A DNA stretch of 64,000 nucleotides from Verrucomicrobiia bacterium (GTDB taxonomy: Bacteria > Verrucomicrobiota > Verrucomicrobiia > Limisphaerales > UBA11358), in assembly GCA_049280815.1 (NCBI GenBank), contig JBAPQW010000014.1, positions 76,893 through 140,892 of the forward strand. Direction: 5' to 3'. The translations under genes were made by a program, and so were the position numbers. A model generated the notes under the pieces. The model was not told where the DNA came from. It saw nothing but the letters and a program-made list of their open reading frames with translations, and searched no databases. Shown here piece by piece: positions 14,669-60,532 of this stretch. Every line of letters begins with the position of its first letter. The first letter of the stretch is position 1.

Positions 14669-14682
14669 GGTTGAGAGTTGAG
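14669..14682. repeat. heptamer array GGTTGAG AGTTGAG (left arm of the livJ-livH inverted pair)
   Basis: Two 7-nt units directly after the livJ stop. They are the reverse complement of the CTCAACC units at 14800-14827. Confidence 0.6.
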
Positions 14683-14775
14683 GAAAAACCTGCAAATGAC
14701 AATGTCGTGCTCAACTTTGATCCAGTGGACGTATGGCGGAGGGCTTTTGACTCTGCCGCGAACGGACAGGGCGAA

Positions 14776-14835
14776 ATGTTGAGCGGCCCCCGGAATTCTC
14801 TCAACCCTCAACCCTCAACCCTCAACTGGCTCTGA
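14776..14835 (+). CDS. candidate 19-codon upstream ORF spanning the heptamer array
   Basis: ATG 14776 ... TGA 14833-14835 translates MLSGPRNSLNPQPSTLNWL. Its stop overlaps CTG 14832-14834 (CTGA), the inferred livH start. Confidence 0.3.
   Translation: MLSGPRNSLNPQPSTLNWL
14800..14827. repeat. heptamer tandem array CTCAACC x3 + CTCAACT
   Basis: Four exact or near-exact 7-nt units read directly from the sequence, immediately upstream of the conserved livH N-terminus. Confidence 0.9.
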
Positions 14836-15737
14836 CCGAATTTCTCCAGCAACTCATCAACGGCCTGGCTTTCGGCTCGATTCTCGCCCTGATTGCGCTC
14901 GGCTACACGATGGTTTACGGAATTCTCCGCTTCATCAATTTCGCCCACGGCGACATTTTCATGCTCGGCGCGTTCACCGGATTTTATATCGCGCCAAGAA
15001 TCGCCACCCTTTTACCCACCCCGTCCATCGGGGCCGGACTCGTCGTCATGGGGATTTCCATGGCGATCTGCGCGGCCATCGGCGTGATCATTGAACGGCT
15101 GGCCTACCGGCCGTTGCGACGCAGTCCCAAACTGGCCGTCCTGATCTCGGCCATCGGGGTTTCGCTGTTCCTCGAATACACCGGCCAGCTGGCCTTCGGT
15201 GCCGCCCCCAAAAAATTTCCCGACCTCATCCCGGTTTATCCCCTCACGCAATTAGATGGATTGAGCATCAACAGCAACCAGGTCATCGTGCTCGGCGTGA
15301 CGTTGTTGCTGTTGCTGGCCCTGAGATTCATCACGTTGAAAACCAAAATCGGCACGGCCATGCGCGCGTTGTCGTTCAATCCCGAGGCCGCGGCGCTCAT
15401 GGGGATCAACACCGACGTCGTCATCTCATTCACCTTTGCCCTCGGTTCGGCGCTGGCGGCGGCGGCGGGCATTCTCTATGCCATCAGCTACCCGGCCATT
15501 GACCCGCTCATGGGCATTTTGCCCGGGCTCAAGGCGTTCGTGGCCGCGGTGCTCGGCGGCATCGGCAACCTGCCCGGCGCGGCGCTGGGTGGCATCATCA
15601 TCGGCGTCACCGAGACGCTTGTTTCCGGCTACATTTCCTCGACCTACCGGGATGCGATCGCCTTTGGCGTTTTGATTTTGATCCTGCTGATCAAACCTTC
15701 GGGCCTGCTTGGCAAAAGGGAGGTTGAAAAGGTGTGA
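14832..15737 (+). CDS. livH: branched-chain amino acid ABC transporter permease LivH, non-canonical (CTG?) start
   Basis: The first ATG (14910) falls inside the conserved LivH motif GYTMVYG. The in-frame upstream sequence encodes LTEFLQQLINGLAFGSILALIALGYT, matching the LivH N-terminus. This frame has no ATG/GTG/TTG between the stop at 14748-14750 and 14910, so only CTG 14826 or 14832 is available. Confidence 0.8.
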   Translation: MTEFLQQLINGLAFGSILALIALGYTMVYGILRFINFAHGDIFMLGAFTGFYIAPRIATLLPTPSIGAGLVVMGISMAICAAIGVIIERLAYRPLRRSPKLAVLISAIGVSLFLEYTGQLAFGAAPKKFPDLIPVYPLTQLDGLSINSNQVIVLGVTLLLLLALRFITLKTKIGTAMRALSFNPEAAALMGINTDVVISFTFALGSALAAAAGILYAISYPAIDPLMGILPGLKAFVAAVLGGIGNLPGAALGGIIIGVTETLVSGYISSTYRDAIAFGVLILILLIKPSGLLGKREVEKV

Positions 15738-16720
15738 TGTTCAGGCATGCCAAACTCCTGCTGCTCGCCGCCTTGGGGCTGAGCCTCCTGGTGTCGCTCG
15801 GCGCGGCCCGCATCGACCCTTACGTCCTCTTTGTCCTGTGTAACATCGGAATCTATATCATCCTTGCCGTCAGCTTGAACCTGATCAACGGGTACACCGG
15901 CCAGTTCTCACTCGGTCACGCCGGTTTCATGGCCGTGGGCGCTTACACCGCAGCGGTAATCACCAACCAGTTCGGGGCCTTGAATCCGTTCGCCTCCGGT
16001 GCGCTTTTCTTCGGCGCGCTCCTCGCCGGCGGATTGCTCGCGGCGGTGGCCGGCCTGCTGGTGGGACTGCCAACCCTGCGGCTGAAGGGCGATTATCTGG
16101 CCATCGTCACACTCGGTTTTGGCGAAATCATCCGCGTCATTTTTCAAAACATGGACCGGGTTGGCGGGGCGCGCGGCTTAAGCGTGATGCACGATTACAC
16201 GAATTTCTTCTGGACGTTCGGCATGGCGGCGGTGACGGTTTACGTGGTCACCGCGCTGGTGCACTCAACCTACGGCCGCGGCTTCATTGCCGTGCGCGAC
16301 GACGAGATTGCCGCCGAGGCGATGGGCATCAACACAACCAAATACAAGGTCACCGCGTTTGTGGTCGGCGCGTTTTTTGCCGGCATTGCCGGCGGCCTCT
16401 TTGCGCATTCCACGCTGTTCCTCACGCCGGGCGGGTTTAACTTCATGCAATCCATCGCCATCGTGGTGATGGTCATCCTGGGCGGCATGGGCAACACGCC
16501 CGGGGTGATTCTCGCCGCGGTTCTCCTTACCCTGCTGCCGGAGGGGCTGCGCTGGTTGGCCGGGGTCGAACATCTCCCGGGCATCGCCAAAATGCATCCG
16601 CTGGGCTGGATTGGCGACACGCGGATGATCATTTACTCCCTGTTGCTCATCGCGCTCATGCTGACGCGACCCCAGGGACTGTTTACCTGGCGCAGAAAAA
16701 TCCAGAACATCCCGTCATGA
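15734..16720 (+). CDS. livM: branched-chain amino acid ABC transporter permease LivM
   Basis: Polytopic permease with GQFSLGHAGFMAVGAYTAA and LRLKGDYLAIVTLGFGEIIR. GTG 15734 overlaps the livH stop (GTGA); ATG 15737 is the alternative start. Confidence 0.9.
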   Translation: MMFRHAKLLLLAALGLSLLVSLGAARIDPYVLFVLCNIGIYIILAVSLNLINGYTGQFSLGHAGFMAVGAYTAAVITNQFGALNPFASGALFFGALLAGGLLAAVAGLLVGLPTLRLKGDYLAIVTLGFGEIIRVIFQNMDRVGGARGLSVMHDYTNFFWTFGMAAVTVYVVTALVHSTYGRGFIAVRDDEIAAEAMGINTTKYKVTAFVVGAFFAGIAGGLFAHSTLFLTPGGFNFMQSIAIVVMVILGGMGNTPGVILAAVLLTLLPEGLRWLAGVEHLPGIAKMHPLGWIGDTRMIIYSLLLIALMLTRPQGLFTWRRKIQNIPS

Positions 16721-17493: not shown

Positions 17494-17577
17494 ATGAACA
17501 ACCAAGGCGCGAAGACACAAAGAAAAAGAACTGGCCGTCAGGCTGCATGGCGCCTTTGCGCCTTTGTTGTTTAAAAC

Positions 17578-18288: not shown

Positions 18289-18295
18289 TTTCCGG

Positions 18296-24144: not shown

Positions 24145-24165
24145 CTCAACCCTCAACGCTCAACT
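24145..24165. repeat. heptamer array CTCAACC CTCAACG CTCAACT
   Basis: Three 7-nt units occupy most of the 32-nt rplM-rpsI spacer and end 5 nt before the rpsI ATG. Confidence 0.85.
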
Positions 24166-24627: not shown

Positions 24628-24633
24628 CGAGCC

Positions 24634-24667
24634 TGTAGCAGCCGACGTGGGGAGGCTCCGGCTGATT
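24634..24667. repeat. REP-like element (TGTAGCAGC ... CCGGCTGATT type)
   Basis: TGTAGCAGCCG...CCGGCTGATT. The same two motifs recur at 28031-28088. Local pairings are GAGCC/GGCTC and CAGCCG/CGGCTG. Confidence 0.5.
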
Positions 24668-24769
24668 GGGTTGGAGACAAATGATTGACCGTTTAATTTG
24701 AGCCTCGCTGCCTCGGCGGCTGCAAATAACATTTTTTTCTTTGCGTCTTTGCGTTAATAGAAAGGTGGT

Positions 24770-26650: not shown

Positions 26651-26690
26651 AAACCACCGGCGTATTTCGCAATTTGCGCCCGTGACCGAT

Positions 26691-28022
26691 ATGAAAAAGT
26701 TGTTCAAAGAAATTCAAGGTTCCATCGTCGCTCCGCGGGGTTTTCTCGCCAGCGGCGTGTTTTGTGACATCAAACGCCTTGGCACCGGCAAGGGTTCGAA
26801 CAAGGGGCCCAAACGTGATCTGGCGCTGATTGTCTCCGAGGTGTCGGCGACCGTCGCGGGCATGTTTACGACCAACCAGGTTTGCGCGGCGCCGGTGAAG
26901 ATTTGTGTCGAGCGCGTGAAAAAGGGAACGGCCCGGGCCGTGGTCCTCAATTCCGGCAACGCCAACGCCTGCACCGGCCGGCAGGGTTTGCAGGACGCGC
27001 AGGAGATGGTTCGCTACACCGAGCGCGCATTGGCCTTTCCGAAAGGCTCGGTCCTGGTCGGCTCGACCGGGCGTATCGGCGTCACGATGCCCATGGACAA
27101 CATCCGGGCGGGAATCATCGAGGCCTGCGTGGAATTGGGTTCCACCGCCGCCCACGCTGCCCACGCGGTCGAAGCCATCATGACGAGTGACACGCGGCCC
27201 AAGCAACTGGCGGTTGAATTCAAGCTGGGCGGAAAAACCGTTCGCCTCGGAGGCATCTGCAAGGGCGCGGGCATGATCCAGCCAGGCATGAGTGCCACGG
27301 GTGCGCGGCCCGCCGCGCTGCCGTTGCATGCAACCATGCTGGGTTTCATCACCACGGATGTTGCCATCGAGGCCGGGGTTTTGCAGGCCGCGCTGTGCGA
27401 AGCCGTCGCGCATAGTTTTAATCGCATCACCGTGGACGGCGACATGAGCACGAACGACACGGTGCTCGTGCTGGCGAACGGGCTGGCGGGGAACAAAAAC
27501 ATCCAACATCCAACATCCAACATCCAACATCGCATTTTTCAAGCGGCGCTCAACCACGTTTGCCTCGAGCTGGCCAAAATGATCGTCCGCGACGGCGAAG
27601 GCGTTCATCGCGTGGTGACGGTGCGGGTGAGCGGCGCGAAGACAGTTCAAGATGCCGATGCTGCGGCGCGCGCGGTGGCGAACAGCGCGCTGGTGAAAAC
27701 CAGCTGGCATGGCGGCGATCCGAACTGGGGCCGCATCATGGATGCGCTCGGCTATTCACCGGCCAGAATCGTCGAGGAAAAAGTGGACATCGGGTATAGT
27801 TCCGCTGACCGCAAAAAAATCCTGTGGAGCCTCAAACACGGGCAGCCGACGAAGGCGACATTCAAACAACTTTGCGCCGCCGTGGCGCCGAAGGAATTCG
27901 ATTTGCACGTCAACCTGAATCTTGGCCGGGCTGGGGCGGTGATTTACGCCGCGGATTTGACCGAGGAATATGTGGACTTCAACAAGGGCGACGTGGGCGA
28001 TCCGGGTTCGCTGGGGGGCTAA
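26691..28022 (+). CDS. argJ: bifunctional ornithine acetyltransferase / N-acetylglutamate synthase ArgJ
   Basis: GFLASGVFCDIK, self-cleavage region PLHATMLGFITTD, IVRDGEGVHRVVTVRVSGA. ATG 26691 preferred over GTG 26682. It contains the AACATCC heptamer array. Confidence 0.92.
   Translation: MKKLFKEIQGSIVAPRGFLASGVFCDIKRLGTGKGSNKGPKRDLALIVSEVSATVAGMFTTNQVCAAPVKICVERVKKGTARAVVLNSGNANACTGRQGLQDAQEMVRYTERALAFPKGSVLVGSTGRIGVTMPMDNIRAGIIEACVELGSTAAHAAHAVEAIMTSDTRPKQLAVEFKLGGKTVRLGGICKGAGMIQPGMSATGARPAALPLHATMLGFITTDVAIEAGVLQAALCEAVAHSFNRITVDGDMSTNDTVLVLANGLAGNKNIQHPTSNIQHRIFQAALNHVCLELAKMIVRDGEGVHRVVTVRVSGAKTVQDADAAARAVANSALVKTSWHGGDPNWGRIMDALGYSPARIVEEKVDIGYSSADRKKILWSLKHGQPTKATFKQLCAAVAPKEFDLHVNLNLGRAGAVIYAADLTEEYVDFNKGDVGDPGSLGG
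27498..27532. repeat. heptamer array AACATCC x4 + AACATCG inside argJ
   Basis: 35 nt of exact period-7 repeat, translated in frame as NIQHPTSNIQH. Confidence 0.9.
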
Positions 28023-32851: not shown

Positions 32852-32879
32852 TTCAACCCTTAACCCACAACTCCTAACG
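32852..32879. repeat. degenerate heptamer array TTCAACC CTTAACC CACAACT CCTAACG
   Basis: Four 7-nt units of consensus YYNAACY ending 3 nt before the pdxA ATG 32883. Confidence 0.65.
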
Positions 32880-33922: not shown

Positions 33923-34765
33923 TCAACCGATCAACGCGCGGACTTTCGTGCCGATGTCGCCGCCTTTCATCAGGGATTCACCGACCAGGATCGCCTTCGC
34001 ACCGCACTGCTTCAAACGCTCCACATCCGCGCGCGTGTGAATGCCGCTTTCTGCCACCAGCAAAGGACAGGGCGGAGGATTGGGCATGGAGGATGGCGTG
34101 GAAGTTTTTGCCATCTTCGATCTGCCAACTTTCATCACCGCCGCCAGAAGCTCCGTCGTCGCCAGGTCCACCTCGAAATTTTTCAAATTGCGGTTGTTCA
34201 CGCCGATGAGCGTCGGGGAGATTTTCAACGCGCGGTCCAATTCTGGCTCATCGTGGACTTCAACCAGGACGGCGAGGCCGGATTCCGTCGCGAGCGAATG
34301 GAATTTTTCCAGCTGTTCGTCGCTTAAAATCGCGACGATGAGCAGGATGGCGTCCGCGCCCCACTCGCTGGATTCGAGGATTTGCCGCTCATCGATGATG
34401 AAATCCTTGCGCAGCAACGGCAGCTTCACCGCCGCGCGGATTTGCCGGAGATAATCGAGCGACCCCTGGAAAAACTTCTCATCGGTCAAAACGGACAGGC
34501 AGCTGGCGCCGCCTGCCTCGTAGGCTTTGGCGATGCGAACGGGGTCAAAGTCCTGGCAAATGACGCCGGCGGACGGCGACGCCTTTTTAACCTCGGCAAT
34601 CAATGCCAGGTCGCCCCGGCGCGGCTGGCGCAAGGCGGCGAGGAAATCGCGCCGTTCACCGCGTTCGAGCAAGGCATCGCGCAAATCGCCCGCGGCAAGC
34701 ACGCGCTCGGAAAGGCGGGCGACCTCCAGTTTTTTCTCAGCCACGATTTTATCGAGGATGTTCAT
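33923..34765 (-). CDS. trpC: indole-3-glycerol phosphate synthase
   Basis: LIAEVKKASPSAG, LSVLTDEKFFQGS, LRKDFIIDERQI, IGVNNRNL, VAESGI. Confidence 0.92.
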   Translation of the reverse strand: MNILDKIVAEKKLEVARLSERVLAAGDLRDALLERGERRDFLAALRQPRRGDLALIAEVKKASPSAGVICQDFDPVRIAKAYEAGGASCLSVLTDEKFFQGSLDYLRQIRAAVKLPLLRKDFIIDERQILESSEWGADAILLIVAILSDEQLEKFHSLATESGLAVLVEVHDEPELDRALKISPTLIGVNNRNLKNFEVDLATTELLAAVMKVGRSKMAKTSTPSSMPNPPPCPLLVAESGIHTRADVERLKQCGAKAILVGESLMKGGDIGTKVRALIG

Positions 34766-34770
34766 CGGAA

Positions 34771-34894
34771 AATGACTAATGACTAAATACTAATGACTAA
34801 AGTATGACGAAGCACGAATCCTGATAAACGTGCGCCGTTCGTCATTCGAGCAATTGGGCATTCTTTAGTCATTCGTCATTATGGTTTAGTCATT
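34771..34894. repeat. inverted heptamer arrays (AATGACT units vs AGTCATT/CGTCATT units) filling the prfB-trpC spacer
   Basis: Left array 34771-34805 (AATGACT AATGACT AAATACT AATGACT AAAGTAT). Central hairpin GACGAAGCACG...CGTGCgccgTTCGTC. Right array 34840-34894 (CGTCATT ... AGTCATT CGTCATT ATGGTTT AGTCATT). Confidence 0.85.
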
Positions 34895-36040
34895 TATTCT
34901 TCCTCATCCTTCACGCCCTGCATCCGTTTTGCCGGGCAGCCGGCGCGCAACCAGCCGTTCACGAACGCATCCAGATCGCCGTCCATTACCCCCTGCACGT
35001 CGCTCGTTTCCACGCCGGTGCGCAAATCCTTCACCATGCGATACGGCTGAAAGACATAGCTGCGAATCTGGTTGCCCCACGAAATGCTGCCCTTCTCGCC
35101 GTAAAACCGTTCCATGTCGGCCTTCTGCGCATCCACCCGCTGGGCGTAAATGCGCGACAGCAACAGTCGCATCGCCGTGGCGCGGTTCTGGTGCTGCGAC
35201 CGCTGGGTTTGCGACGCGACAACGAGGCCGGTCGGAAGGTGGGTGATGCGCACGGCGGTTTCCACCTTGTTCACATTCTGGCCGCCCTTGCCCCCGGAAC
35301 GAAACGTATCCACGTGGAATTCATTCGGCGGGACCACGATTTCCGACGACGTTTCCTCAATTTCCGCAATCGCGTCCACGCTGGCGAAGCTGGTGTGGCG
35401 GCGTTTGTTGGAATCAAACGGCGAGATGCGCACGAGCCGGTGGACACCCCGTTCGGCCTTGGCAAAGCCGTAGGCGTTTTCCCCCTGGAGCAGCATCGTG
35501 ACGCTCTTGAGGCCCGCGCCTTCGCCGGGCAACGCGTCGGTGATGTCGACCTCCCAGCCGCGCGATTCGGCCCAGCGCTGATACATGCGCGAAAGCATTT
35601 CCGCCCAATCCTGCGCCTCGGTGCCGCCGGCGCCGGCATTGATGCTGAGGATGCAATTCTTCCGGTCATGCGGCCCGTTGAGAAAAACCTTCAGCTCCAG
35701 GATTTCGAGTTCCTTGAAAAATCGGGCGAGGTCGCGGGTGAGTTCCTTTTCCACCTGGGCCTGGGCTTCCGGCGGTTCGGCCTCGCCCAGCTCGAGCATG
35801 ACGCGGAAATCTTCCAGCTTCTTTTCCGCCTGGAGCAGCGGTTCGATCTTGTTGCGGAGGGAGTTCGCCTCGTCGATCAGCGTCTGCGCCTTCTCGCGGT
35901 TGTTCCAGAAATTATCGGTGGCCATGAGCGCATTGAGTTCGCCCAGGCGTTTTTGCGCGTTGGGGACGTCAAAGAAACCTCCGCAGGTGCGTAAGCTTCT
36001 CGGCGGCGGTGGCAATTTCTGTCTTAACCGTTTCGAACAT
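34894..36040 (-). CDS. prfB: peptide chain release factor 2, requires programmed +1 frameshift
   Basis: ORF0 runs from ATG 36040 (MFETVKTEIATAAEKLTHLRRFL) to in-frame TGA 35971-35969. The +1 frame continues from GAC 35970 (DVPNAQKRLGELN...) to TAA 34894-34896. SPF (RISPFDS) and GGQ (GGKGGQNVNK) motifs are present. Joined coordinates: complement(34894..35970,35972..36040). Confidence 0.93.
35968..35983 (-). other. RF2 programmed +1 frameshift site
   Basis: The minus strand reads CGG AGG TTT CTT TGA C, i.e. SD-like GGAGG 3 nt before the canonical CTT TGA C slippery/stop context. Confidence 0.9.
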
Positions 36041-36044: not shown

Positions 36045-36079
36045 CCAGAATACAGAATCCAGAATCCCGAATCCAGAAC
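36045..36079. repeat. heptamer array CCAGAAT ACAGAAT CCAGAAT CCCGAAT CCAGAAC
   Basis: Five 7-nt units fill the 45-nt spacer between the pseudopilin stop (36086) and the prfB ATG (36040). Confidence 0.85.
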
Positions 36080-36085
36080 GGAAAG

Positions 36086-37285
36086 CTAAAGTCCGCCTTC
36101 GCGTTGCGCCTTTTTTCGTTGCGCTCGTTGCCATGCTTTGAACGCCAGCAGCAGCAGGAAAATCAACAGCACCAGCAAATAGGTCCCGAAGATGATCCTC
36201 CTCGCCGTTTTGATGACGCGCTGGTCAAACGTCAAGGCCGTCGTTTCCGCCTCATTGGTGGTGACCGCAGCTTCGTTTGTCATCGCCTTCGTGTTCGAGC
36301 CGGTTTCAACTGAAGAGGCTCCGGTGGTCTTTGTCTCATCGACAGGTGGAGTCGATTTTGTTGTCGAACTGGTTATGGGATTGTTTTGATTGGCATTCTG
36401 AACGTTGCCAGCTGCCGATGGCGAGCGGACAGACAGATTTGCGGCGGCTGGGTTGATTGGCGCGTCACCATTATTTCCGGTTCCCCTGCTTGGGGGTGAT
36501 CCCCGATTGGCTGGAGCCGATTGCCCCGTATTCCCTGACTGGGCAGAACCACTGTTCTGCGCGCCGCCGCCACTGGTGCTGGATGGATCCGGGGTTATTT
36601 CGGACCCGGGTACAATCGGCCTGACGAGGTCTTCAGTCACGGACTCTTCCGACAGAACAATCGCATTATAAGATTCTTCTACATGTCCATCCGAGAAAAG
36701 GATATTGCCCAATTTCTTGTAATGCAAACCGTCCCATTGGGGTCGCGGCGCAACGGTTGGTATATGGACGATGCCTCTTCGATGAGGGGGCAGATCGGCC
36801 GGGAGGTCGCGGTCACAGGCAAGAATCGCGTTGGGGTTGACGGGATACGCGACCAGGCCGATTTCATAGCTTAAGTTCCAATTGTTAAACTGGTTGAAAT
36901 TCGTGGCCGGCCAACGCTGCAAATCCGCCGGACAAGCCAGCGGCTTGGGAGTGACAAGCCCTTCGGCGAGCGGGCGGAAATGTTGATATGAAAAATAAAA
37001 GGATTGGTCGAAGATCTGATAACCGGCAGTAACGAATTCCAGCGAGCCTTCGTCATTGGTTGAGACCTGCGTGGGAAATTTCCCGCCGTGTTCATTCGCA
37101 AACAAATGGGCGGCGAGCCCTATTTGTTTCAGGTTGCCGACACATTCAATCCGCCTGGCCCGAGCCTGGGCTTGAGCCAATGCCGGCAACAGCAGCGCCG
37201 CCAGAATGCCGATGATGGCGATGACCACCAGCAACTCCACCAGAGAGAACGCACCCGCCCTGCGATTCGATCGGCTGGAATTCAT
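36086..37285 (-). CDS. prepilin-type N-terminal cleavage/methylation domain protein with a long low-complexity tail and a C-terminal TM anchor
   Basis: [38 protein letters not shown]1559-like [11 protein letters not shown] motif. P/S/T/G/N-rich tail, then [19 protein letters not shown] followed by a basic end. Confidence 0.85.
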
Positions 37286-37433
37286 GCCGGACCAATCATT
37301 AGCACTGGCCGTGCCACGCCGGTTTTGACTTCAAAAGACTGATTCGATCTCCCAAGCGCGTTATCTTCACGCCATCCCGCGTGGGGTTCACGCGTCCAGG
37401 GCTGTTGGGATCCGCAGAATCCAAAATGGAAAC

Positions 37434-37811: not shown

Positions 37812-38366
37812 TTATTTATGGGTGGGGAGCTGGGAATAGACCATGAACAAGAGCACCACGATGACGATGCCCATGATGGCAACGCTCAGCCAGAAGTAGA
37901 GGCCGGCCTTGTTGCGCTTTTTGGAAAATTCCTTGTTGGCGCCCAAACCGGGCGGACGGCCGCCGCTTTCCAGTTCGCTCAGGCTGACCCCGCGCGGGAT
38001 GACCAGGGTGGCTTCCACCTGCCGTTTGGCCGGGGCGGGAGCGGAGCCGGAGCCGGAGCCGGGAGCGGCGGCCGGGGTTCCGGGGGCGTCGAGTTTCAAT
38101 TCCACGTTGCCCAACCGCAGCGTCTGGCCGGGCTTCAAAACGCTTTCCGCGATCTTTTCATTATTGATGAATGTGCCGTTTGTCGAATTGAGATCCCGGA
38201 TGAGGACTTCGGTGCCGCGCAGGTGAACTTCGCAATGGTGGCTGGAGACGGATGGCTCGGCAATTTGGAACAGGTTGTCCTCAACACGGCCAATCGTGGT
38301 GCGATCCACGTTCAGCTCATGTGCGCGGCCGTTCAGGCCCTGAGTCAGAATAACAAGTTTGGCCAT
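37812..38366 (-). CDS. FHA domain protein with C-terminal TM anchor
   Basis: TTIGRVEDNLFQIAEPSVSSHHCEV...IRDLNSTNGTFINNEKI is a canonical FHA domain. C-terminal helix LYFWLSVAIMGIVIVVLLFMV. Confidence 0.88.
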   Translation of the reverse strand: MAKLVILTQGLNGRAHELNVDRTTIGRVEDNLFQIAEPSVSSHHCEVHLRGTEVLIRDLNSTNGTFINNEKIAESVLKPGQTLRLGNVELKLDAPGTPAAAPGSGSGSAPAPAKRQVEATLVIPRGVSLSELESGGRPPGLGANKEFSKKRNKAGLYFWLSVAIMGIVIVVLLFMVYSQLPTHK

Positions 38367-41129: not shown

Positions 41130-41203
41130 GCGGGCGTAGTTCAATGGTAGAACGGAAGCCTTCCAAGCTTCACACGTGGGTTCGATTCCCATCGCCCGCT
41201 CCA
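41130..41203 (+). tRNA. tRNA-Gly (anticodon UCC), CCA encoded
   Basis: Hand-folded cloverleaf: acceptor GCGGGCG/CGCCCGC, D arm GTTC-AATGGTA-GAAC, anticodon arm GAAGC-CTTCCAA-GCTTC, T arm GTGGG-TTCGATT-CCCAT, discriminator T, CCA. Confidence 0.92.
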
Positions 41204-41298: not shown

Positions 41299-41976
41299 TT
41301 ATTCCTGTCCGCCGTGCTGGCGAAGCACTTCCGCGACAGCCTTGTATCCCATGGCCTCCGCCCGGCGCAATGGCGTCAAGCCCAGGTTATCCTTGGCATT
41401 GACCTCCGCCTTGTACGCCAGCAGCACTTCCACCAAGTCCTTGTAGCCCTTGAATGCCGCCCAGTGCAAAGGGGTCAAGCCGTCCTTGTCCCTGGCATTG
41501 ACCTCGGCTTTGTTGGCCAGCAGCACTTCCGCCACGTCTTTCTGGCCGTTGGCTGCCACGGAGTGTAAAGGCGTGCGGCCATCGTTGTCCCTGGCATTGA
41601 CCTCGGCTTTGTTGGCCAGCAGCAATTCCGCCACGTCCTTGTGGCCCACGATCGCCGCCGCATACAAAGGCGTTGAACCCAGTTTGTTCCTGGCGTTGAC
41701 GTCGGCTTTGTTGGCCAGCAGCAATTCCGCCACGTCCTTGTGGCCCATAAATGCCGCCCAATGCAACGGCGTCATGCCATCGCTGTCTTTGCTCACGGCC
41801 AGATCAGGGTGGTCTTTGAGCAATGCCTTGACCTTGGCCAGGTCACCATTCCGGGCCGCCTCATCAATCTCGCCGCAGAAGGCGAGACTGCTCCAGGCCA
41901 GTGCGACCAGCAGGATGGCGGCGCGGCGCAGAATCGGGGACCCGCCCAGCCGGCCAGGAAATGAATGCGTGTTCAT
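41299..41976 (-). CDS. secreted ankyrin-repeat protein
   Basis: Signal peptide, then five tandem repeats of the form TPLHWAAFxGHKDVAELLLANKAxVNA. Confidence 0.88.
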   Translation of the reverse strand: MNTHSFPGRLGGSPILRRAAILLVALAWSSLAFCGEIDEAARNGDLAKVKALLKDHPDLAVSKDSDGMTPLHWAAFMGHKDVAELLLANKADVNARNKLGSTPLYAAAIVGHKDVAELLLANKAEVNARDNDGRTPLHSVAANGQKDVAEVLLANKAEVNARDKDGLTPLHWAAFKGYKDLVEVLLAYKAEVNAKDNLGLTPLRRAEAMGYKAVAEVLRQHGGQE

Positions 41977-50149: not shown

Positions 50150-50920
50150 ATGCCATTGCTTGAAGGAAAGTTCGGGGTCGTTTTCGGTGTCGCCAATCAA
50201 CGCTCCATTGCCTGGGCCATCGCGCAGGCGTGGGCGCGCGAGGGCGCGAAGCTCGCGTTCACCTACCAGGGCGACCGGCTCAAGGAGAACGTGGAGGAAC
50301 TCGCCGGCACCTTTGGCGCCGACACGCTCATCCTGCCGTGCGATGTGACCAAGGACGAGGAAATCGCGAACGTGTTCAAAACCGTGGGCGAAAAATTCGG
50401 CAAATTGCATCTGCTCCTGCACTCGGTGGCGTTTGCGCCGAAAGCCGCGCTGGAAGGCGAATTCGTCAATACCAGCCGCGAGGCGTTCCGTGTGGCGCAT
50501 GACGTGAGCGCCTATTCGCTCGTCGCGCTCGCCCGGGCCGCAGCGCCGCTGATGACCGATGGCGGCAGCGTCGTGGCCATGAGTTATTACGGCGCGGAAA
50601 AGGTCGTGCCGCACTACAACGTCATGGGCGTGGCCAAGGCCGCGCTCGAAGCCAGCACGCGCTATCTCGCCTACGACCTCGGCCCGAAGAAAATTCGCGT
50701 CAACTGCATCAGCGCCGGTCCCGTCAACACGCTCGCCGCGCGCGGCATCAGCGGCTTCAACGAAATGCTCAAGCAATACGAGGCCCGGTCGCCGCTCAAG
50801 CGCAACGTGCTGCCCGAGGAACTCGGGGCCACGGGCCTGTTTCTCGCCAGCGACGGCGCGGCCGCCATCACCGGCCAGGTGATCTACGTGGATTCCGGCT
50901 ACCAGATCATGGGGATGTAA
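50150..50920 (+). CDS. fabI: enoyl-[acyl-carrier-protein] reductase (NADH)
   Basis: GKFGVVFGVANQRSIAWAIA, HSVAFAP, YNVMGVAKAALEASTRYLA, INCISAGP. Confidence 0.93.
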   Translation: MPLLEGKFGVVFGVANQRSIAWAIAQAWAREGAKLAFTYQGDRLKENVEELAGTFGADTLILPCDVTKDEEIANVFKTVGEKFGKLHLLLHSVAFAPKAALEGEFVNTSREAFRVAHDVSAYSLVALARAAAPLMTDGGSVVAMSYYGAEKVVPHYNVMGVAKAALEASTRYLAYDLGPKKIRVNCISAGPVNTLAARGISGFNEMLKQYEARSPLKRNVLPEELGATGLFLASDGAAAITGQVIYVDSGYQIMGM

Positions 50921-50937: not shown

Positions 50938-51020
50938 CGATTTACGATATGCGATTTACGTGATCTGCGCGGATCGGGAGTGATTCGTAAATCGTAAATC
51001 AAACCTCGCAAATCCAAATC
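50938..51020. repeat. inverted heptamer-array hairpin element (CGATTTA units vs CGTAAAT units), copy 1
   Basis: Left CGATTTA CGATATG CGATTTA CG (50938-50960). 25-nt loop. Right CGTAAAT CGTAAAT CAAACCT CGCAAAT CCAAATC (50986-51020). CGATTTACG/CGTAAATCG forms a 9-bp stem. It fills the convergent fabI/flavin-reductase spacer. Confidence 0.85.
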
Positions 51021-51621
51021 AGGCCGGGCGGATCATTTCAAAACGGTCGCGGGTGCGGCAATACCAGTGCGGGGACGCCATGCGCCCGATGAGAAACAGC
51101 TTGTCGGTGCGGATCCGTTTTTTCTCCGCGTCGAACAGTTCATCGCGCAAATGAAGGCGTTTGATCAGGCCGATCACCATGCGATTGCCGCCGATTTGCA
51201 GCGTGCCCCATTCGGTGCATTCCAGGTTCACCGGCGATTCCGCGATGCGCGGCGGTTTCACGACGGAGGATGGCGCGGCGTGGAGTCCGGCGCGGGTCAA
51301 TTCATTTTCGCCGAACGGCAGCGACGCCGCGCATTGGTTCATCGCCTCGGCGATCGTTTCATCCACCAGGTTCACAACAAATTCATGTGTGGCGCGGACG
51401 TTCAAGGCGGTGTCCTTGGGCGCGCCGTTGTCGCGGTCGCCGGGCGCAAAGGCGCAGATGGGCGGGTTTGCGCCCATGAGATTGAAGAAACTGAACGGCG
51501 CGGCGTTCACCCGGCCATCGGCGCTGAGCGTGGTGACGAGGGCGATGGGCCGCGGCGTGACCAGGCTGGCGAGGAGGGGATACACCCGGTCGGCAAATTC
51601 CTTTTCAAGATCAAGTTCCAT
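51019..51621 (-). CDS. flavin reductase family protein
   Basis: FMN-binding split-barrel pattern (VTPRPIALVTT...GRVNAAPFSFFN). Confidence 0.8.
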   Translation of the reverse strand: MELDLEKEFADRVYPLLASLVTPRPIALVTTLSADGRVNAAPFSFFNLMGANPPICAFAPGDRDNGAPKDTALNVRATHEFVVNLVDETIAEAMNQCAASLPFGENELTRAGLHAAPSSVVKPPRIAESPVNLECTEWGTLQIGGNRMVIGLIKRLHLRDELFDAEKKRIRTDKLFLIGRMASPHWYCRTRDRFEMIRPA

Positions 51622-51668: not shown

Positions 51669-53036
51669 TCAGCGACGAACCAGGCGGGCCACAAACGCGC
51701 CGTCCACATCGTCCACGAACGGCAGCAATTCGTGTGCGTATTCCAATTTGAAATCAGGGTGATCACTTAAGAAGTGTTTCACGACGTCACCGTTTTCCTC
51801 CGGTTCCAGGCTGCAGGTGCTGTACACCAAAACACCGCCGGGTTTCACCCGGGGCGCGGCCTGGCTGAGCAAATCCAGCTGCGCGGCGTGGAGGCGTTTG
51901 ATTTCCGCTGCTTGAACCCGCCAGCGCAAATCCACGCGGCGGCGCATCACGCCGGTGTTCGAACACGGAGCGTCCACCAGGATGCGGTCGAAGCTGGTTG
52001 AGGGTTGAGAGTTGAGAGTTGAGGGCAAAACGGGTTCGACACAGGTCACCCCGAGCCGCAGGCAGTTTTCCCGGATCAAACCCAGCCGTTCCTCTGAAAC
52101 ATCCTGGGCGACGATGCGGCCCTGGTTGTTCATCCATTGCGCGATGAACGTGGTTTTGCCGCCGGGAGCGGCGCAAAAATCCAAAATCGCATCCCCGGGC
52201 TGCGGCCCGAGCCTGGCCACGGCCAGCAACGTGCTGGGATCCTGGAGGTAAAACCCGCCGTCGCGAAAACTCGCCAGGGAGTGCAATGGCGGGTGGGTTT
52301 TCAATTCAAACACCAGATTTTCAAAATCAGCAGGGGCCCGCTGCCGTGCGTCCAGGCTGACCGACGGGTCGGTTCTGCCAAGAAATTCGCGCCGGACAAA
52401 ATCAGATTCGACATTTTCCGCGCGCCAGGTTTCCAGCAGTTTGCCGGCGTCGGTTTTCAAGGTGTTGACCCGGGCAAACGTTTTCGGCGGCGTATTGTTC
52501 CATTCCAGGAGCCGGGCCGTCTTTTCGGCGCCCCAGCGTTTTTGCCAGCGGGTGACGAGCCATTCGGGGTGCGACCAGCCGAGGGCCGGTTGTGACGTTT
52601 TCAATCCGGCCAGCAGCCTTTTGGTTTCGTCCTGGACGCGCAGGTAGCCGCGCAAAATGGCGTTGATGAATCCGGCCCGGGTGCCCAAACCGTTTTGTTT
52701 GGCGAGCTCAACCGTCTCGTGGACGGCGGCGTGGTCGGGAATGCGGTCGAGCCAGAAAATCTGGTAGAGGCCGAGCCGCAGCAGATTCTGGAGGCCGGGT
52801 TTTTGTTCGCGCCCATCGGTTTTTTGCGCGATGAGCCAGTCGAGCGTGGCCTGCCAGCGGACGACGCCATAAGTGATTTCCTGGCAAAGCCCCCGGTCGG
52901 CGGACGAAAGCGCCGCCCCCGCCAGCGCGGCCTGGAGCAAATCCTCGACAAACTCACCGTCGGCGCGCCGTTGCTGCAAAACCTGCGCCGCGATTTGTCT
53001 TGGTTTTTGGCCGCTCACCAACTTTAATAATGCCAT
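51669..53036 (-). CDS. rsmB: 16S rRNA (cytosine967-C5)-methyltransferase RsmB/Sun
   Basis: NusB-like N-terminus, then MTase motifs ILDFCAAPGGKT, DRILVDAPCSNTGVMRR and LVYSTCSLEPEEN. It contains the heptamer array. Confidence 0.9.
   Translation of the reverse strand: MALLKLVSGQKPRQIAAQVLQQRRADGEFVEDLLQAALAGAALSSADRGLCQEITYGVVRWQATLDWLIAQKTDGREQKPGLQNLLRLGLYQIFWLDRIPDHAAVHETVELAKQNGLGTRAGFINAILRGYLRVQDETKRLLAGLKTSQPALGWSHPEWLVTRWQKRWGAEKTARLLEWNNTPPKTFARVNTLKTDAGKLLETWRAENVESDFVRREFLGRTDPSVSLDARQRAPADFENLVFELKTHPPLHSLASFRDGGFYLQDPSTLLAVARLGPQPGDAILDFCAAPGGKTTFIAQWMNNQGRIVAQDVSEERLGLIRENCLRLGVTCVEPVLPSTLNSQPSTSFDRILVDAPCSNTGVMRRRVDLRWRVQAAEIKRLHAAQLDLLSQAAPRVKPGGVLVYSTCSLEPEENGDVVKHFLSDHPDFKLEYAHELLPFVDDVDGAFVARLVRR
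51996..52023. repeat. heptamer array (GGTTGAG x2, AGTTGAG x2 on the + strand; CTCAACY on the coding strand) inside rsmB
   Basis: 28 nt of period-7 repeat, translated as PSTLNSQPST between MTase motifs. Confidence 0.9.
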
Positions 53037-54928: not shown

Positions 54929-54938
54929 AAATTCAAAA

Positions 54939-54978: not shown

Positions 54979-54988
54979 TCCAAACGTT

Positions 54989-56238: not shown

Positions 56239-56241
56239 ATT

Positions 56242-57102: not shown

Positions 57103-57106
57103 AACC

Positions 57107-57817: not shown

Positions 57818-57857
57818 AGCGCCACGCGTTAATCTTTCCGTTATTAAATCATAAATC

Positions 57858-58961
57858 ATGTTAAAAGCTGGAATTGTCGGTTTGCCCAACGTCGGGAAAT
57901 CCACCCTGTTCAACGCCGTCACTCGCACGCGCAAGGCCGAGGCGGCGAATTATCCCTTCTGCACCATTGACCCGAACGTCGGCGTCGTCACCGTGCCGGA
58001 CGCCCGGCTCGAACCCCTCGCCAAAGTCGCCAAAACCCAGGTCATCATCCCGGCGGCGATTGAATTTGTGGACATTGCCGGCCTGGTCAAGGGCGCTTCC
58101 CAGGGCGAGGGCCTCGGCAACAAGTTTCTCACCCACATCCGGGAGGTGGACGCCATCGTCCAGGTCGTGCGCTGCTTCGAGGACGCGGACATCCATCACG
58201 TGACCGGCACGGTGGATCCCGTGCGCGACATCGAAACCATCACGACGGAGCTGGTGCTGTCCGACCTGGAGGCGGTGCAGAAACGGCTCGCCAGCGTGGC
58301 CAAGGACGCCAAGCGCGGCGACAAGGAGGCGCTCGCCCAGGAAACCGTGCTTAAAAAAATCGAACCGCACCTCAATGCCGGCAAGCCCGCGCTCACCCTG
58401 CAGCTTGCCCCGGAGGAAAAGGCCATCTCGCGCCTGTTCTGGCTGATGACCGACAAACCCACGATTTTTGCGTGCAACGTCAAGGAATCCGACCTGGCCG
58501 CCGCGGACAGGAATCCGTTCATCCAAAAGGTGAGCGACTACGCCCAGCATCATTTTGCCTGCGAGGCCGTCGTCATCAGCGCGCAGATCGAAAGCGACTT
58601 GATCGATTTGTCGGCGGACGAGGCAAAACAATTTCTGAAGGAACTTGGCGTCGAGGAATCCGGGGTCGGCGCGCTGATCCGCGCCACGTATCATCTGCTC
58701 GGCTTGCGCACGTATTTCACCGCGGGCGAAAAGGAGGTGCGCGCCTGGACGATTCACGCCGGCGACACCGCACCCAAGGCCGCCGGGGTCATCCATTCCG
58801 ACTTCGAACGCGGTTTCATCAAGGCCGAGACCGTCGCCTACGACGACTTGATGAAGTGCGGTTCCATCGCCGCCGCGCGCGAAAAAGGTCTCTACCGCAT
58901 GGAAGGCAAGGAATACGTCGTGAAGGACGGCGACGTGCTGCTGTTCAAGTTCAACGTGTGA
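57858..58961 (+). CDS. ychF: redox-regulated ribosome-binding ATPase YchF
   Basis: [37 protein letters not shown]-terminal TGS domain [27 protein letters not shown]. Confidence 0.95.
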
Positions 58962-58973
58962 TCTTAATATTTC

Positions 58974-59049
58974 CGATTTTCGATATACGATTTACGCAGG
59001 CAGGTGAATTGGGGAGCGACTCGTAAATCGTAAATCCAATATCGTAAAT
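58974..59049. repeat. inverted heptamer-array hairpin element, copy 2 (homologous to 50938-51020)
   Basis: Left CGATTTT CGATATA CGATTTA CG (58974-58996). 25-nt loop. Right CGTAAAT CGTAAAT CCAATAT CGTAAAT (59022-59049). Same 9-bp stem CGATTTACG/CGTAAATCG and the same loop length as copy 1. Confidence 0.85.
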
Positions 59050-59105
59050 CAGCCAGAATAACGTAATCTCGTCTGCTACATTACCAGCTGGCGCCAGCCT
59101 CCAGC

Positions 59106-59133
59106 TTGACTGGCTGGACCAAGCTGCTATCTT
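59106..59133 (+). promoter_or_regulatory. putative sigma70-type promoter of the aroF leader
   Basis: TTGACT (59106-59111), 16-nt spacer, TATCTT (59128-59133). This would place the TSS at or next to GTG 59140 (near-leaderless), which is a weakness. Confidence 0.3.
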
Positions 59134-59139
59134 TGTCTC

Positions 59140-59229
59140 GTGAACAGCCAGCAAACAAACCACGCAGCCAGCAGCCAGTATTTCTTTTATTGGTTTGGCC
59201 CGGTCGGCGCGCACTTGCGGCTGCGATAG
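59140..59229 (+). CDS. candidate aromatic-amino-acid leader peptide (29 aa)
   Basis: GTG 59140 ... TAG 59227-59229 translates MNSQQTNHAASSQYFFYWFGPVGAHLRLR. Codons TAT TTC TTT TAT TGG TTT occupy 59179-59196. Confidence 0.6.
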   Translation: MNSQQTNHAASSQYFFYWFGPVGAHLRLR

Positions 59230-59256
59230 AATTTTCATCAAACCAATCGCCGCAGG
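59214..59256 (+). promoter_or_regulatory. candidate antiterminator pairing
   Basis: CTTGCGGC (59214-59221) can pair with GCCGCAGG (59249-59256), 8 bp including one G-U. This competes with the terminator's right arm. A further helix is ATTGGTTTG (59189-59197) / CAAACCAAT (59239-59247). Confidence 0.5.
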
Positions 59257-59286
59257 TCGCCAAACGCCTGCGGCGTTTTTGTTTTT
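59248..59286 (+). terminator. rho-independent terminator (attenuator) about 30 nt upstream of aroF
   Basis: CGCCGCAGG (59248-59256) pairs with CCTGCGGCG (59267-59275), a perfect 9 bp, followed by TTTTTGTTTTT (59276-59286). Confidence 0.8.
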
Positions 59287-59314
59287 GTGACCTTCGGCCA
59301 ACCCATAAAAAACC

Positions 59315-60334
59315 ATGATCATCGTGCTCAAACCCCGGATTTCGAGGAAAGAGGAACAGGCCGTCCTCAGGGAAATCCGCAAGCTCGGCTACACCCCCCA
59401 CGTCATGCGCGGCGTGGCCCGCACCGTCGTCGGCGCCATCGGCGACGAACTCACCCACGCCAACCTCGAAACACTGGTCGCCCAGTTCCCGCGCGCGGTG
59501 GAAAGCGTCATGCCCATCCAGAAGCGTTACAAGCTCGTCAGCCGCGAGGCGCATCCGGCCAATTCCACCATCCGCGTCCGCGAACACGTCATCGGCGGCA
59601 AACGACTCCATGTCATGGCCGGCCCGTGCTCGGTGGAAAGCGAGAAACAACTGCTGGCCACCGCCGAGGCGGTGAAGGCCGCCGGGGCGACCATCCTGCG
59701 CGGCGGCGCATTCAAGCCGCGCACCTCACCCTACGAATTTCAGGGACTCGGCGAGAAAGGGCTCAAGCTGCTCGACAAGGCGCGGCGCGCCACCGGGCTG
59801 GCCGTCATCACCGAATTGCTGTCCGAAAATCACGTCGATATGGTGGCTGAATACACGGACATCATCCAGATCGGCGCGCGGAATGCGCAGAACTTTCAGC
59901 TCCTGATCGCCGCCGCCAAAACCGGCAAGCCCGTCCTGCTCAAGCGCGGGCTTTCCATGAAAATCGAGGAATGGCTGCTGGCGGGCGAATATATCCTCGC
60001 CAATGAAAATCCGAACCTCCTGTTCTGCGAACGCGGCATCCGGACATTCGAGACCTACACGCGCAACACGCTCGACCTCTCGACCATCCCCATCATCAAG
60101 CGCGAATCGCATTGTCCGATCGTGATTGATCCGAGCCAGGGCGCCGGGCGCGCGGATCTGGTGACGGCCATGTGCCAGGGCGCGGTGGCGATGGGCGCGG
60201 ACGCGTTGTTGATCGAGGTGCACCCGAATCCGGCGGGAGCCTGGAGCGACGGCGCGCAACAGTTGTCGCTCAACGGTTTCGCAAAACTGATGCAGGAATT
60301 GAAGCCATTCATCGCCGCCGCCGGACGCGAATAA
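59315..60334 (+). CDS. aroF: 3-deoxy-7-phosphoheptulonate (DAHP) synthase, class I-beta with N-terminal ferredoxin-like regulatory domain
   Basis: MIIVLKPRISRKEEQAVLREIRKLGY (regulatory domain), then VMAGPCSVES, LRGGAFKPRTSPYEFQGLG, QIGARNAQNF, KRGL, DPSQGAG. Confidence 0.92.
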   Translation: MIIVLKPRISRKEEQAVLREIRKLGYTPHVMRGVARTVVGAIGDELTHANLETLVAQFPRAVESVMPIQKRYKLVSREAHPANSTIRVREHVIGGKRLHVMAGPCSVESEKQLLATAEAVKAAGATILRGGAFKPRTSPYEFQGLGEKGLKLLDKARRATGLAVITELLSENHVDMVAEYTDIIQIGARNAQNFQLLIAAAKTGKPVLLKRGLSMKIEEWLLAGEYILANENPNLLFCERGIRTFETYTRNTLDLSTIPIIKRESHCPIVIDPSQGAGRADLVTAMCQGAVAMGADALLIEVHPNPAGAWSDGAQQLSLNGFAKLMQELKPFIAAAGRE

Positions 60335-60403
60335 GCGCTAGAACGCGAAAAGGCATAACGAGCGCAAATGGTGGGGCGAAGCTGCTGACGAACCGTTTTA
60401 ACC

Positions 60404-60431
60404 CTCAACCGTCAACGCTCAACCACCAACC
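60404..60431. repeat. heptamer array CTCAACC GTCAACG CTCAACC ACCAACC
   Basis: Four 7-nt units (a degenerate tail continues to about 60442) in the aroF / PRC-BON spacer. Confidence 0.75.
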
Positions 60432-60532
60432 AAACTTCAACCGCACAGGCGCCAACCCGCCGTCTGGCCGCTTGCGTTCCTGAAACCTTCAGTAAGGGTA
60501 ACACCCCATGGCCTCCATCCGGTTCCCGGCCT

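Follow-up and report, generated by a model that had tools for sequence, protein, structure and literature searches.

Short arrays of tandem heptamers occur at 12 to 14 loci in the 64,000-nucleotide stretch analysed here (the window; positions 76,893 to 140,892 of contig JBAPQW010000014.1, from a Verrucomicrobiia bacterium). These arrays are best read, with a probability of about 0.6 for the reading as a whole, as the heptamer repeats of this lineage, similar to the short tandemly repeated repetitive (STRR) sequences of cyanobacteria. Inverted pairs of arrays would be the arms of cassettes that resemble rRNA intervening sequences (IVS) and lie at gene junctions, solo arrays would occupy leaders and tolerant protein loops, and the repeats would act as RNA duplexes and evolve by slippage. 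The cassette class consists of repeat-built complementary arms that enclose a PF05635 gene, a GxxExxY gene (PF13366) or nothing. Full, internally deleted and empty versions of the cassette were found at orthologous sites, with a shared architecture: stop codon, 4-5 nt, arm, core, arm, 5 nt and start codon.

One such cassette separates livK from livH in the window, where the following features were located.

14669..14682, plus strand: 5' arm of the livK-livH stem-loop cassette (GGTTGAG AGTTGAG), starting 4 nt past the livK stop codon (14662-14664)
14707..14802, plus strand: decayed core of a PF05635 open reading frame (ORF), in one frame, with the middle ~85 codons deleted
14800..14827, plus strand: 3' arm of the cassette (CTCAACC x4), located by Tandem Repeats Finder (TRF) and by folding, with homologous arms in relatives
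14832..14834, plus strand: probable CTG start codon of livH, 5 nt past the 3' arm, aligned with the ATG/GTG ACC GAA TTT start of relatives

Relatives of this cassette were found by a metagenome scan with LivH (L numbers denote the sequences that were compared with the window). In L082, whose LivH is 94% identical, the livK stop codon is followed by GTTGATA GTTGAGA GTTGATG GTTGATG, an intact ORF of 119 codons, CTATCAA CCATCAA CTATCAA CCATCAA and then livH. The intact ORF belongs to the 23S_rRNA_IVP family (PF05635, E 6.5e-36; TIGR02436, "four helix bundle protein") and weakly resembles the Avd protein of diversity-generating retroelements (DGR). The same arrangement was observed in L100, L110, L090 and all 22 of the 22 contigs fetched for four close homologues (L162-L183). 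The 5' arms of these relatives consist of three or four RGTTGATR units directly past the livK stop codon (L082, L100, L110, L162-L183), and their 3' arms of three or four CTATCAA, CCATCAA or CTCTCAA units. Two further sequences, L097 and L122, carry ORF-less versions with unrelated units (AATTWCA, ACTCGGR) at the same junction.

Between the arms of the window cassette, the first 13 codons of the ORF (VLNFDPVDVWRRA, at 14707-14745; counterpart in the intact ORF, MFNFEKLAVWQKS) and its last 17 codons (SAANGQGEMLSGPRNSL, at 14752-14802; counterpart, TAAEEQGKMLSGLRRSV) were recognised. Comparison of this remnant with the intact ORFs of L082 and L100 by tblastn gave matches in the same frame with E values, calculated on a tiny database, of 0.02 and 4e-4. 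Since both arms and the N- and C-terminal codons of the PF05635 ORF are kept in the window, 14669-14827 is therefore an internal-deletion derivative of the cassette. The preliminary description of the arrays had stated that no gene or known feature class explains them. That statement does not stand, since 14669-14827 is a degraded IVS-type cassette holding 13 + 17 PF05635 codons, and since intercistronic heptamer hairpins were already known in cyanobacteria (PMC2670836).

The deletion derivative also bears on how livH is annotated. No in-frame ATG, GTG or TTG is present in the window between the stop codon at 14748-14750 and position 14910. In most cassette-bearing lineages no such codon starts the conserved N-terminus of LivH, and gene callers therefore either shorten livH, starting it at an internal ATG, or lengthen it across the array. 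As a result livH, with its CTG or ATC start past the arm, is mis-started and arrays are read as coding sequence. In cassette-bearing lineages the livH start reads CTG ACC GAA (window, L082, L164, L165), ATC AAC/AGC GAA (L166, L110, L174) or possibly ATA (L162). Cassette-free relatives use ATG or GTG, and L100 carries the cassette yet starts livH with GTG. The near-cognate start codons are possibly related to the presence of the cassette.

A second junction, between the release-factor gene and trpC, carries an ORF-less member.

34771..34894, minus strand: ORF-less stem-loop with AATGACT/AGTCATT arms, occupying all of the spacer that separates the release-factor stop codon (gene 34894-36015) from the trpC start (gene 33923-34765)

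The RNA of 34771-34894 was predicted to fold at -39.6 kcal/mol (z -5.4). A hairpin with period-7 arms forms the entire release-factor/trpC spacer in the window and in seven relatives, with a unit that varies by clade. Four arm types were recorded at this junction, namely AATGACT (window, L005, L041, L062), AACATCS (L001, L004, L054), xAGTAGx (L011) and CACAGAG/CTCTGTG (L034, L184-L190). Three of these four types were folded, giving -39.6, -53.5, -41.9 and -27.8 kcal/mol with z values of -3.6 to -7.4, which bears out the earlier suggestion that pairing is kept while the unit changes. Covariation analysis with MAFFT and RNAalifold was uninformative for these hairpins because arms with unrelated units could not be aligned, and per-sequence folding was used instead.

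In L034 and L184-L190, a gene of the GxxExxY PD-(D/E)XK type (PF13366, TIGR04256) lies between GCCACAGAG ACACAGAG GACACAGAG and their complement at this junction. The arms of this cassette have a period of 8-9. The same cassette was found at a second junction, dapA-dapB, in L191/L192, and in L184/L185 an empty hairpin with identical arms adjoins the GxxExxY ORF. A search for ORF remnants in the core of the AATGACT hairpin (34771-34894) found none. Nine small ORFs of the PF05635/GxxExxY type were present in the first 160 loci; about seven had adjoining short-period arrays, and in about six of them the arrays were inverted and complementary. Copies of the PF05635 gene at livK-livH are 82-93% identical and the gene is fixed at that one locus across the clade; copies of the GxxExxY gene at release-factor/trpC are 73-94% identical. 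This degree of conservation argues for a benefit to the host rather than plain decay. Both families are large, with more than 7000 (PF05635) and more than 7900 (GxxExxY) homologues at E<1e-10.

The association of such genes with repeat arms extends to other phyla. A tblastn comparison of the PF05635 protein with a plasmid collection returned 31 records, mostly from Nostoc, Calothrix, Trichormus, Anabaena and other cyanobacteria. Adjoining heptamer arrays were present in eight of the nine cyanobacterial PF05635 genes whose flanks were read, six or seven of them as inverted pairs, for example AGTAGGG x8 / CCCTACT x5 (Nostoc edaphicum), GGGTGTA / TACACCC (Calothrix), GGGAACA / TGTTCCC (Nostoc C052) and AAAGGGA / TCCCTTT (Geminocystis). 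This sample thus has the same STRR-like bracketing of PF05635 genes as was found in Verrucomicrobiota. GxxExxY genes on Bacteroides and Bernardetia plasmids (Bacteroidota) have CACAGAG/CTCTGTG arms, as in Verrucomicrobiota. On the Nostoc edaphicum plasmid pNe_5 (L193), the AGTAGGG/CCCTACT four-helix-bundle cassette is flanked by the genes for both ribonucleotide reductase subunits, which are on the other strand. On a Pseudanabaena galeata plasmid (L203, 45968-46894), a four-helix-bundle gene lies between cas6 and cas4 with direct arrays of AAAAGCT x11 and AAAAGCC x9.

Two more ORF-less stem-loops in the window have a common arm family.

50938..51020, strand not assigned: CGATTTA/TAAATCG arms forming a stem-loop where fabI (50150-50920) and a flavin reductase gene (51019-51621) converge; z -2.9
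58974..59049, strand not assigned: second stem-loop with CGATTTA/TAAATCG arms, directly past the ychF stop codon (58961); z -3.2 on the minus strand

This arm family occurs at three unrelated junctions (the two above and positions 8808-8890 of L004), and the loops of the hairpins with common CGATTTA arms are unrelated. Since hairpins lie directly past stop codons, in two cases where genes converge or end, they were considered as intrinsic terminators. This candidate was rejected and is scarcely credible: the hairpin arms are AT-rich, a T-run follows none of the array hairpins, and terminators of the canonical kind, with a GC stem and a T-run, lie elsewhere in the window (at 59248-59275, about 200 nt past the ychF hairpin, at 54965-54937 and after rpsI). 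In addition, two of the hairpins separate genes of the same orientation and lie 5 nt ahead of the downstream start codon.

The recurrence of arms at unrelated junctions could also be explained by mobility. According to this explanation the hairpins are miniature elements, similar to doublets of repetitive extragenic palindromic sequences (REPs) that form hairpins (REPINs) or to miniature inverted-repeat transposable elements (MITEs), which are non-autonomous and are moved by a transposase or nuclease, such as the GxxExxY PD-(D/E)XK protein acting on CACAGAG arms, so that the arrays are terminal repeats. The presence of the GxxExxY cassette with its arms at both release factor-trpC and dapA-dapB, the arm motif in Bacteroidota, the empty hairpins that adjoin the ORF in L184/L185 and have the same arms, the MITE-like internal deletion at livK-livH and the spread of the CGATTTA arms are consistent with it. 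The heptamer hairpins showed neither target-site duplications nor conserved termini, however, and the unrelated loops of arm-sharing hairpins and the fixation of the PF05635 cassette at one locus across the clade do not fit. A scan of 20 window ORFs against Pfam revealed no transposase-like gene, including REP-associated tyrosine transposases (RAYT), and PF05635 is not a nuclease. Mobility in this form is decidedly unlikely, although it overlaps with the cassette reading, as it concerns origin and not RNA function. The array hairpins share with REPs, bacterial interspersed mosaic elements (BIMEs) and REPINs the form of extragenic palindromic stem-loops whose arms are more conserved than their loops; REP is a single conserved imperfect palindrome, whereas these hairpins are built from tandem heptamer arrays with locus-specific units.

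Detection and counting of the arrays confirmed that period 7 is exceptional in the window. TRF called period-7 arrays at 14800, 24143, 27498, 34771, 36045, 50933, 50985, 51996, 58969, 59021 and 60400. The loci 14669-14682 (two units only), 32852-32879, 34840-34894, 60404-60431 and 37412-37433 were seen by reading in register; 32852-32879, 34840-34894 and 60404-60431 are degenerate arrays with a core of AAC or TCATT every 7 nt. Together, the two approaches recovered arrays at all the coordinates in the preliminary description. At a score of at least 12 the window contained four arrays of period 7 and none or one of each other period from 4 to 15, and 30 dinucleotide shuffles of the window gave at most one array at that score in any shuffle and none of period 7. 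With up to two mismatches allowed, the CTCAACC-type dimer CTCAACCCTCAAC was observed 16 times in the window, compared with 1.2 expected; the CGTAAAT-type dimer CGTAAATCGTAAATC was observed seven times (0.06 expected).

The comparison was extended to a related set of 80 loci (1.33 Mb), comprising ArgJ +/-10 kb from one genome per species among metagenome-assembled genomes (MAGs) of Verrucomicrobiota subdivision 3 / Limisphaerales. ArgJ has hundreds of homologues at 82-91% identity, and those that are named are from Verrucomicrobia or Limisphaerales. Some of the related MAG records (L001, L003, L013 and others; ArgJ 79-89% identical) are titled "uncultured Bifidobacteriaceae", "Pseudomonadales" or "Candidatus Aquilonibacter", and these titles look wrong. 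In the window and the 80 loci together (1.39 Mb) there were 67 arrays of period 7, 15 of the doubled period 14 and no more than 10 of any other period; shuffles of the same sequence gave 0-2 arrays. As the loci had been retrieved through argJ, a separate count was made beyond the argJ loop, where 38 of the 67 arrays lie. Exact arrays of at least three copies in the 80 loci numbered 37 for period 7, 14 for period 4, eight for period 6 and two for period 8. The comparison with other periods and with shuffled controls that the preliminary description had proposed, made here on the window and 80 loci, therefore came out clearly for period 7, with shuffles near zero. Its view of a dispersed, STRR-like heptamer family agrees with this excess, with the number of loci and with their mostly intergenic location. 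Its claim that the period is always 7 held within the window and failed in the relatives, where arms of period 8-9 are also present.

Outside the argJ loop, 72 arrays represented 45 canonical units (counted as exact canonical forms), and the units were AT-richer than the genome (43% compared with 59% GC). Despite a coding fraction of 0.87, 48 of these 72 arrays lay outside called ORFs, and when positions were mapped relative to starts and stops, 37 of the 48 intergenic arrays were between same-strand genes, often 5-13 nt from a start codon. As genes were called with a home-made whole-ORF codon-score finder, the intragenic count is approximate, at 10 to 24 of 72. About 40 hairpins whose arms are arrays of period 7-8 were found in 1.7 Mb of sequence. 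In the window itself, the four pairs of arrays that flank a spacer are reverse complements, as had been claimed, and all four were predicted to fold; z-scores across the hairpins that were folded ranged from -2.9 to -7.4.

Across species, the place, period and pairing of the arrays persist while the sequence of the unit turns over in concert. At orthologous positions, arrays were kept in relatives at the argJ loop, rplM-rpsI and release-factor/trpC. In L166 (GTCTTTA / TAAAAAC) and L174 (GTGGGAA / TATCCAC), the second unit is aberrant and each arm mirrors the other's change. When cognate and non-cognate livK-livH arms were compared, cognate arms out-paired most of the others (mean rank 1.3 of 8); this test is only moderately discriminating because the livK-livH arms all have a GTTGA core. 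L164 and L165 encode an identical intervening-sequence protein (IVP) and have the same 5' arm, and three of the four units of the 3' arm differ between them in parallel (CTATCAA/CCATCAA compared with CTCTCAA/CCCTCAA). Copy number shifts by whole units, as in the two to four units at rplM-rpsI, and inside genes by three units, as in the loss of 7 amino acids in the ArgJ homologue P0040.

Between strains the arrays are stable and not hypervariable. Identical arrays were found in eight contigs that encode one identical IVP and in 10 contigs (10 samples) that encode another. The arrays of L081 are those of the window, and an exact look-up of the RpsI protein gave only an identical contig. These results bear on the analogy that had been drawn with the 7-bp repeats of the Haemophilus influenzae hmw genes, by which the arrays would be phase-variable contingency loci where gain or loss of a unit switches or tunes the neighbouring genes. 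Repeats do lie near start codons, and one added unit would bring livH into frame with the ATG at 14776. This codon, however, encodes an internal Met in the C-terminal remnant of the decayed PF05635 ORF, and the livH start aligns with the CTG at 14832, as in L082, L164 and L165. The hmw arrays share with those of the window a 7-bp unit in a 5' region; they are long and hypermutable and tune a surface adhesin, whereas these are short, strain-stable and beside housekeeping genes without exception. Given the identity of the arrays in the eight and 10 contigs and in L081, phase variation is extremely improbable here.

The remaining arrays in the window have no inverted partner and are located as follows.

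24145..24165, plus strand: solo array CTCAACC CTCAACG CTCAACT, filling the rplM-rpsI spacer and ending 5 nt before the rpsI ATG (24171)
27498..27532, plus strand: in-frame array AACATCC x5 in argJ (26682-28022), translated as NIQHPTSNIQH, part of a variable surface loop with the DGDMSTND and RDGEG motifs on either side
32852..32879, plus strand: solo array of four degenerate YTNAACC units, with AAC recurring every 7 nt, in the surA-like/pdxA spacer; it stops just short of the pdxA ATG (32884)
36045..36079, minus strand: solo array, sense ATTCTGG x5, upstream of the release-factor start and after the stop codon of a DUF1559/N-methyl gene (36086-37285)
37412..37433, minus strand: decayed copy, 26/32 identical to 36068-36100, of the last part of the 36045 array and the gene end next to it
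51996..52023, minus strand: in-frame array, sense CTCAACY x4, in rsmB (51669-53036), encoding PSTLNSQPST in a linker before the FDRILVDAPCS motif
60404..60431, plus strand: degenerate array without a partner (CTCAACC GTCAACG CTCAACC ACCAACC), within the leader that precedes a PRC-barrel/BON gene (60508-61914)

The CTCAACY unit family is common to solo arrays and cassette arms, being found before livH, rpsI, pdxA and the PRC/BON gene and inside rsmB, and it occurs at six loci within 64 kb. In about 20 related species two to four YYCAACY units occupy the rplM-rpsI spacer and invariably stop just short of the ATG, and in many others this spacer is 8-12 nt. CTCAACY arrays are present in the surA-like/pdxA spacer of L001, L011, L023, L054 and L077, and ATTCTGG-type arrays upstream of the orthologous release-factor gene of L041, L034 and L054. 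In L004 and L005 the CTCAACY array of the surA-like/pdxA spacer is split by a small GC-rich insert (e.g. TGGCGCAGCGAATCCCGTGATGCGGGAGAAGACGG). Small dispersed repeats are reportedly nested in the heptamer arrays of Nostoc as well.

A period-7 array was present in 34 of the 80 argJ loops that were read (79 loci and the window). More than 10 kinds of unit were seen there, including AACATCC, AACATTC, AACATCG, AATTCGG, GAGTTCG, CGATTCA, GTTCAGA, CCGAAGT, CACGCAT, GAAACTC and AAAAATT, and loop length was mostly constant compared with non-repetitive versions such as KKFGAKSPEFKTF. In P0040 exactly 7 amino acids are missing, which equals three units; contraction and re-expansion of in-gene arrays by three units would homogenise the units with the frame intact, and P0040 fits such a process. 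Other genes with in-frame arrays in relatives look like mutL, uvrC and pyrC, as read from conserved motifs with no family search run. Solo arrays may be half-relics of cassettes or independent products of slippage.

In aggregate, solo leader arrays are poor in G on the sense strand (G 0.11, compared with C 0.28). This G-poverty was examined as a sign of selection at the RNA level and was rejected, since orthologous copies dominate the count and independent loci, at 9 vs 4 by hand count, gave no significant difference. The same property bears on a proposal that each 7-nt unit binds one molecule of a single-strand-binding protein, either a cold-shock OB fold or an oligomer of the four-helix bundle encoded by the cassette, and that the period rather than the sequence is under selection. 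A precedent exists in CspB, which is reported to bind heptamer repeats with one protein per unit and weak specificity. The G-poor solo leader arrays abut start codons, arms contain three to five units, and PF05635 ORFs match bAvd-like and Avd models weakly and below the cut-offs (PF22296, 25.8 bits compared with 40; NF033474, E 2.6e-4 and 21.3 bits compared with 80). Binding of this kind is nevertheless very unlikely: the sense-strand bias rests largely on orthologous copies, the arms of the GxxExxY cassettes have a period of 8-9, and in-frame arrays are hard to fit.

Heptamers are the commonest class of long simple sequence repeat (SSR) in many bacteria, and polymerase slippage has been suggested as the cause (PMC4692102, PMC4679880). 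Neutral slippage could thus account for all of the arrays, with heptamer SSRs arising where slippage is favoured and persisting where they are harmless, and with hairpins and the proximity of small ORFs being incidental; the length of DNA in the polymerase active site may correspond to 7 nt. The in-frame arrays in argJ, rsmB and the mutL-, uvrC- and pyrC-like genes, for which an RNA role is not evident, are consistent with this explanation, as are the 45 units in 72 arrays and the variation in copy number between species. It was judged unlikely all the same, since distant lineages have inverted pairs of unrelated units at the same junctions, each pair reaching exactly from stop to start, homologous small ORFs are enclosed by such arms in three phyla, the same unit is found at six loci in 64 kb, and an odd unit is mirrored in both arms.

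Heptanucleotide long SSRs described earlier include GGGAATC in Xanthomonas, GGGGAYT in Nostoc, TAACTGA in Beggiatoaceae, Microcystis and Bacteroidetes, and GATAGRA in Chloroflexus (Mrazek et al. 2007, as cited in later work). The arrays described here resemble these SSRs in the excess of period 7, the intergenic bias, the occasional inverted pairs between convergent genes, the arrays directly upstream of start codons, and the variation of array length and sequence between close species at one junction. They differ in that one unit dominates per genome in those bacteria, whereas many units (45 in 72 arrays) and enclosed gene cassettes were found here.

Under the cassette reading, the arms in the operon transcript would form a long duplex that insulates the insertion, and the stem would bring the upstream stop codon beside the downstream start codon. 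By analogy with rRNA IVS, the duplex would be a likely substrate of RNase III. Stem-loops of the REP/BIME type lie between binding-protein and permease genes of ABC operons in enterobacteria (malE-malF, hisJ-hisQ). Cleavage by RNase III would, like these REP stem-loops, leave a protective 3' stem on the upstream message while separating the cistrons, and could in this way fix how strongly each flanking gene is expressed relative to the other, with, for instance, much LivK and little LivH. The arrays would arise and be homogenised by replication slippage or conversion, and selection would remove versions that break the frame or the pairing.

Several observations weigh against this reading. The change in the 3' arm of L165 is uncompensated and the inner units of several stems are mismatched, which indicates that homogenisation within an arm can outrun selection for pairing. 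At livK-livH, the PF05635 gene behaves, as judged from its sequence and fixed position, like a resident gene rather than a selfish element. The hairpins at 34771-34894, 50938-51020 and 58974-59049 are placed among the ORF-less cassettes by architecture and position alone, and solo arrays, which have no partner, may be an independent by-product. Transcription, processing and the effect on expression are what we infer from the arrangement of arms and genes, and the reading leaves the period of 7 without an explanation.

A broader reading was also considered, in which STRR-type arrays in general, rather than being free-standing microsatellites, are the arms or relics of a widespread and hitherto undescribed class of IVS-like cassettes, with a PF05635 gene, a GxxExxY gene or no gene inside, that insert at the tips of RNA structures or at stop/start junctions in Verrucomicrobiota, Cyanobacteria, Bacteroidota and the rRNA operons of Coxiella. 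In the 23S IVS of Coxiella, an S23p ORF lies in the loop of a 28-bp terminal stem that is cut by RNase III, and three tandem GACAGAT heptamers lie at the 5' side in a number that varies between strains (PMC4990558). The cassettes share with the IVS of Coxiella and Leptospira, which carry an S23p/PF05635 ORF, complementary ends pairing into a long stem, with an ORF of the same family in its loop. They differ in that both arms are tandem repeats and the host RNA is predicted to be an operon mRNA and not a helix of 23S rRNA; all cassette copies in the window and relatives lie between protein-coding genes and none in rRNA.

With the STRR sequences of heterocystous cyanobacteria, the arrays have in common 7-nt units, several families, a dispersed and mostly intergenic distribution and some hairpins within operons. 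The hosts differ (Verrucomicrobiota), as do the unit sequences, and the arrays have few units (2-5). The hupS-hupL intergenic STRR hairpins of cyanobacteria have been recorded as unexplained (PMC2670836), and transcript stability or translational coupling has been proposed as the function of STRR sequences in cyanobacteria. The literature search, in which coverage was incomplete, found no description of arrays in Verrucomicrobiota, in agreement with the preliminary description, or of a link between small-ORF cassettes and STRR or heptamer arrays.

Records of heptamer repeats go back to 1990 for cyanobacteria and to 2007 for many other bacteria, and neither their origin nor their function has an agreed explanation. 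The roles of PF05635 and GxxExxY, both very large families, are likewise unexplained, as are rRNA intervening sequences. The window and its relatives tie the heptamer repeats, the PF05635 and GxxExxY families and the rRNA intervening sequences into one architecture. If the broader reading were true, one explanation would serve for STRR sequences, rRNA intervening sequences and two very large orphan protein families, and the repeat arms would be made or maintained by RNase III processing, by an encoded oligomer bound at one unit per subunit or by the insertion mechanism. This extension is tentative and, taken as a whole, more doubtful than probable. The link across phyla between heptamer arrays and PF05635/GxxExxY cassettes is absent from the literature that could be consulted and is the part most worth following up.

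Other repeats and RNA features were recorded in the window and its relatives. A GC-rich hairpin lies past the rpsI terminator at 24632-24725 (GTAGCAGCCGACGTGGGGAGGCTC ... GAGCCTCGCTGCCTCGGCGGCTGC), and its family is also found in frame in the argJ loop of L009, L024, L025, L038, L041, L054 and L062. Two more hairpin families occur in the argJ loop, one in L002, L011, L019, L021 and L059 and the other in L005, L063 and L070. At gathering thresholds Rfam detected one tRNA only in the window, and no rRNA was found there. This tRNA is a tRNA-Gly at 41130-41203, for which ARAGORN and Rfam agree. The tRNA-SeC that ARAGORN placed at 38245-38319 is probably false because it lies inside an FHA-domain ORF (37812-38366, minus strand) and has no Rfam support. 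The 99-nt repeat that TRF reported at 41358-41787 corresponds to the ordinary ankyrin-repeat coding region of a gene at 41299-41976 (minus strand).

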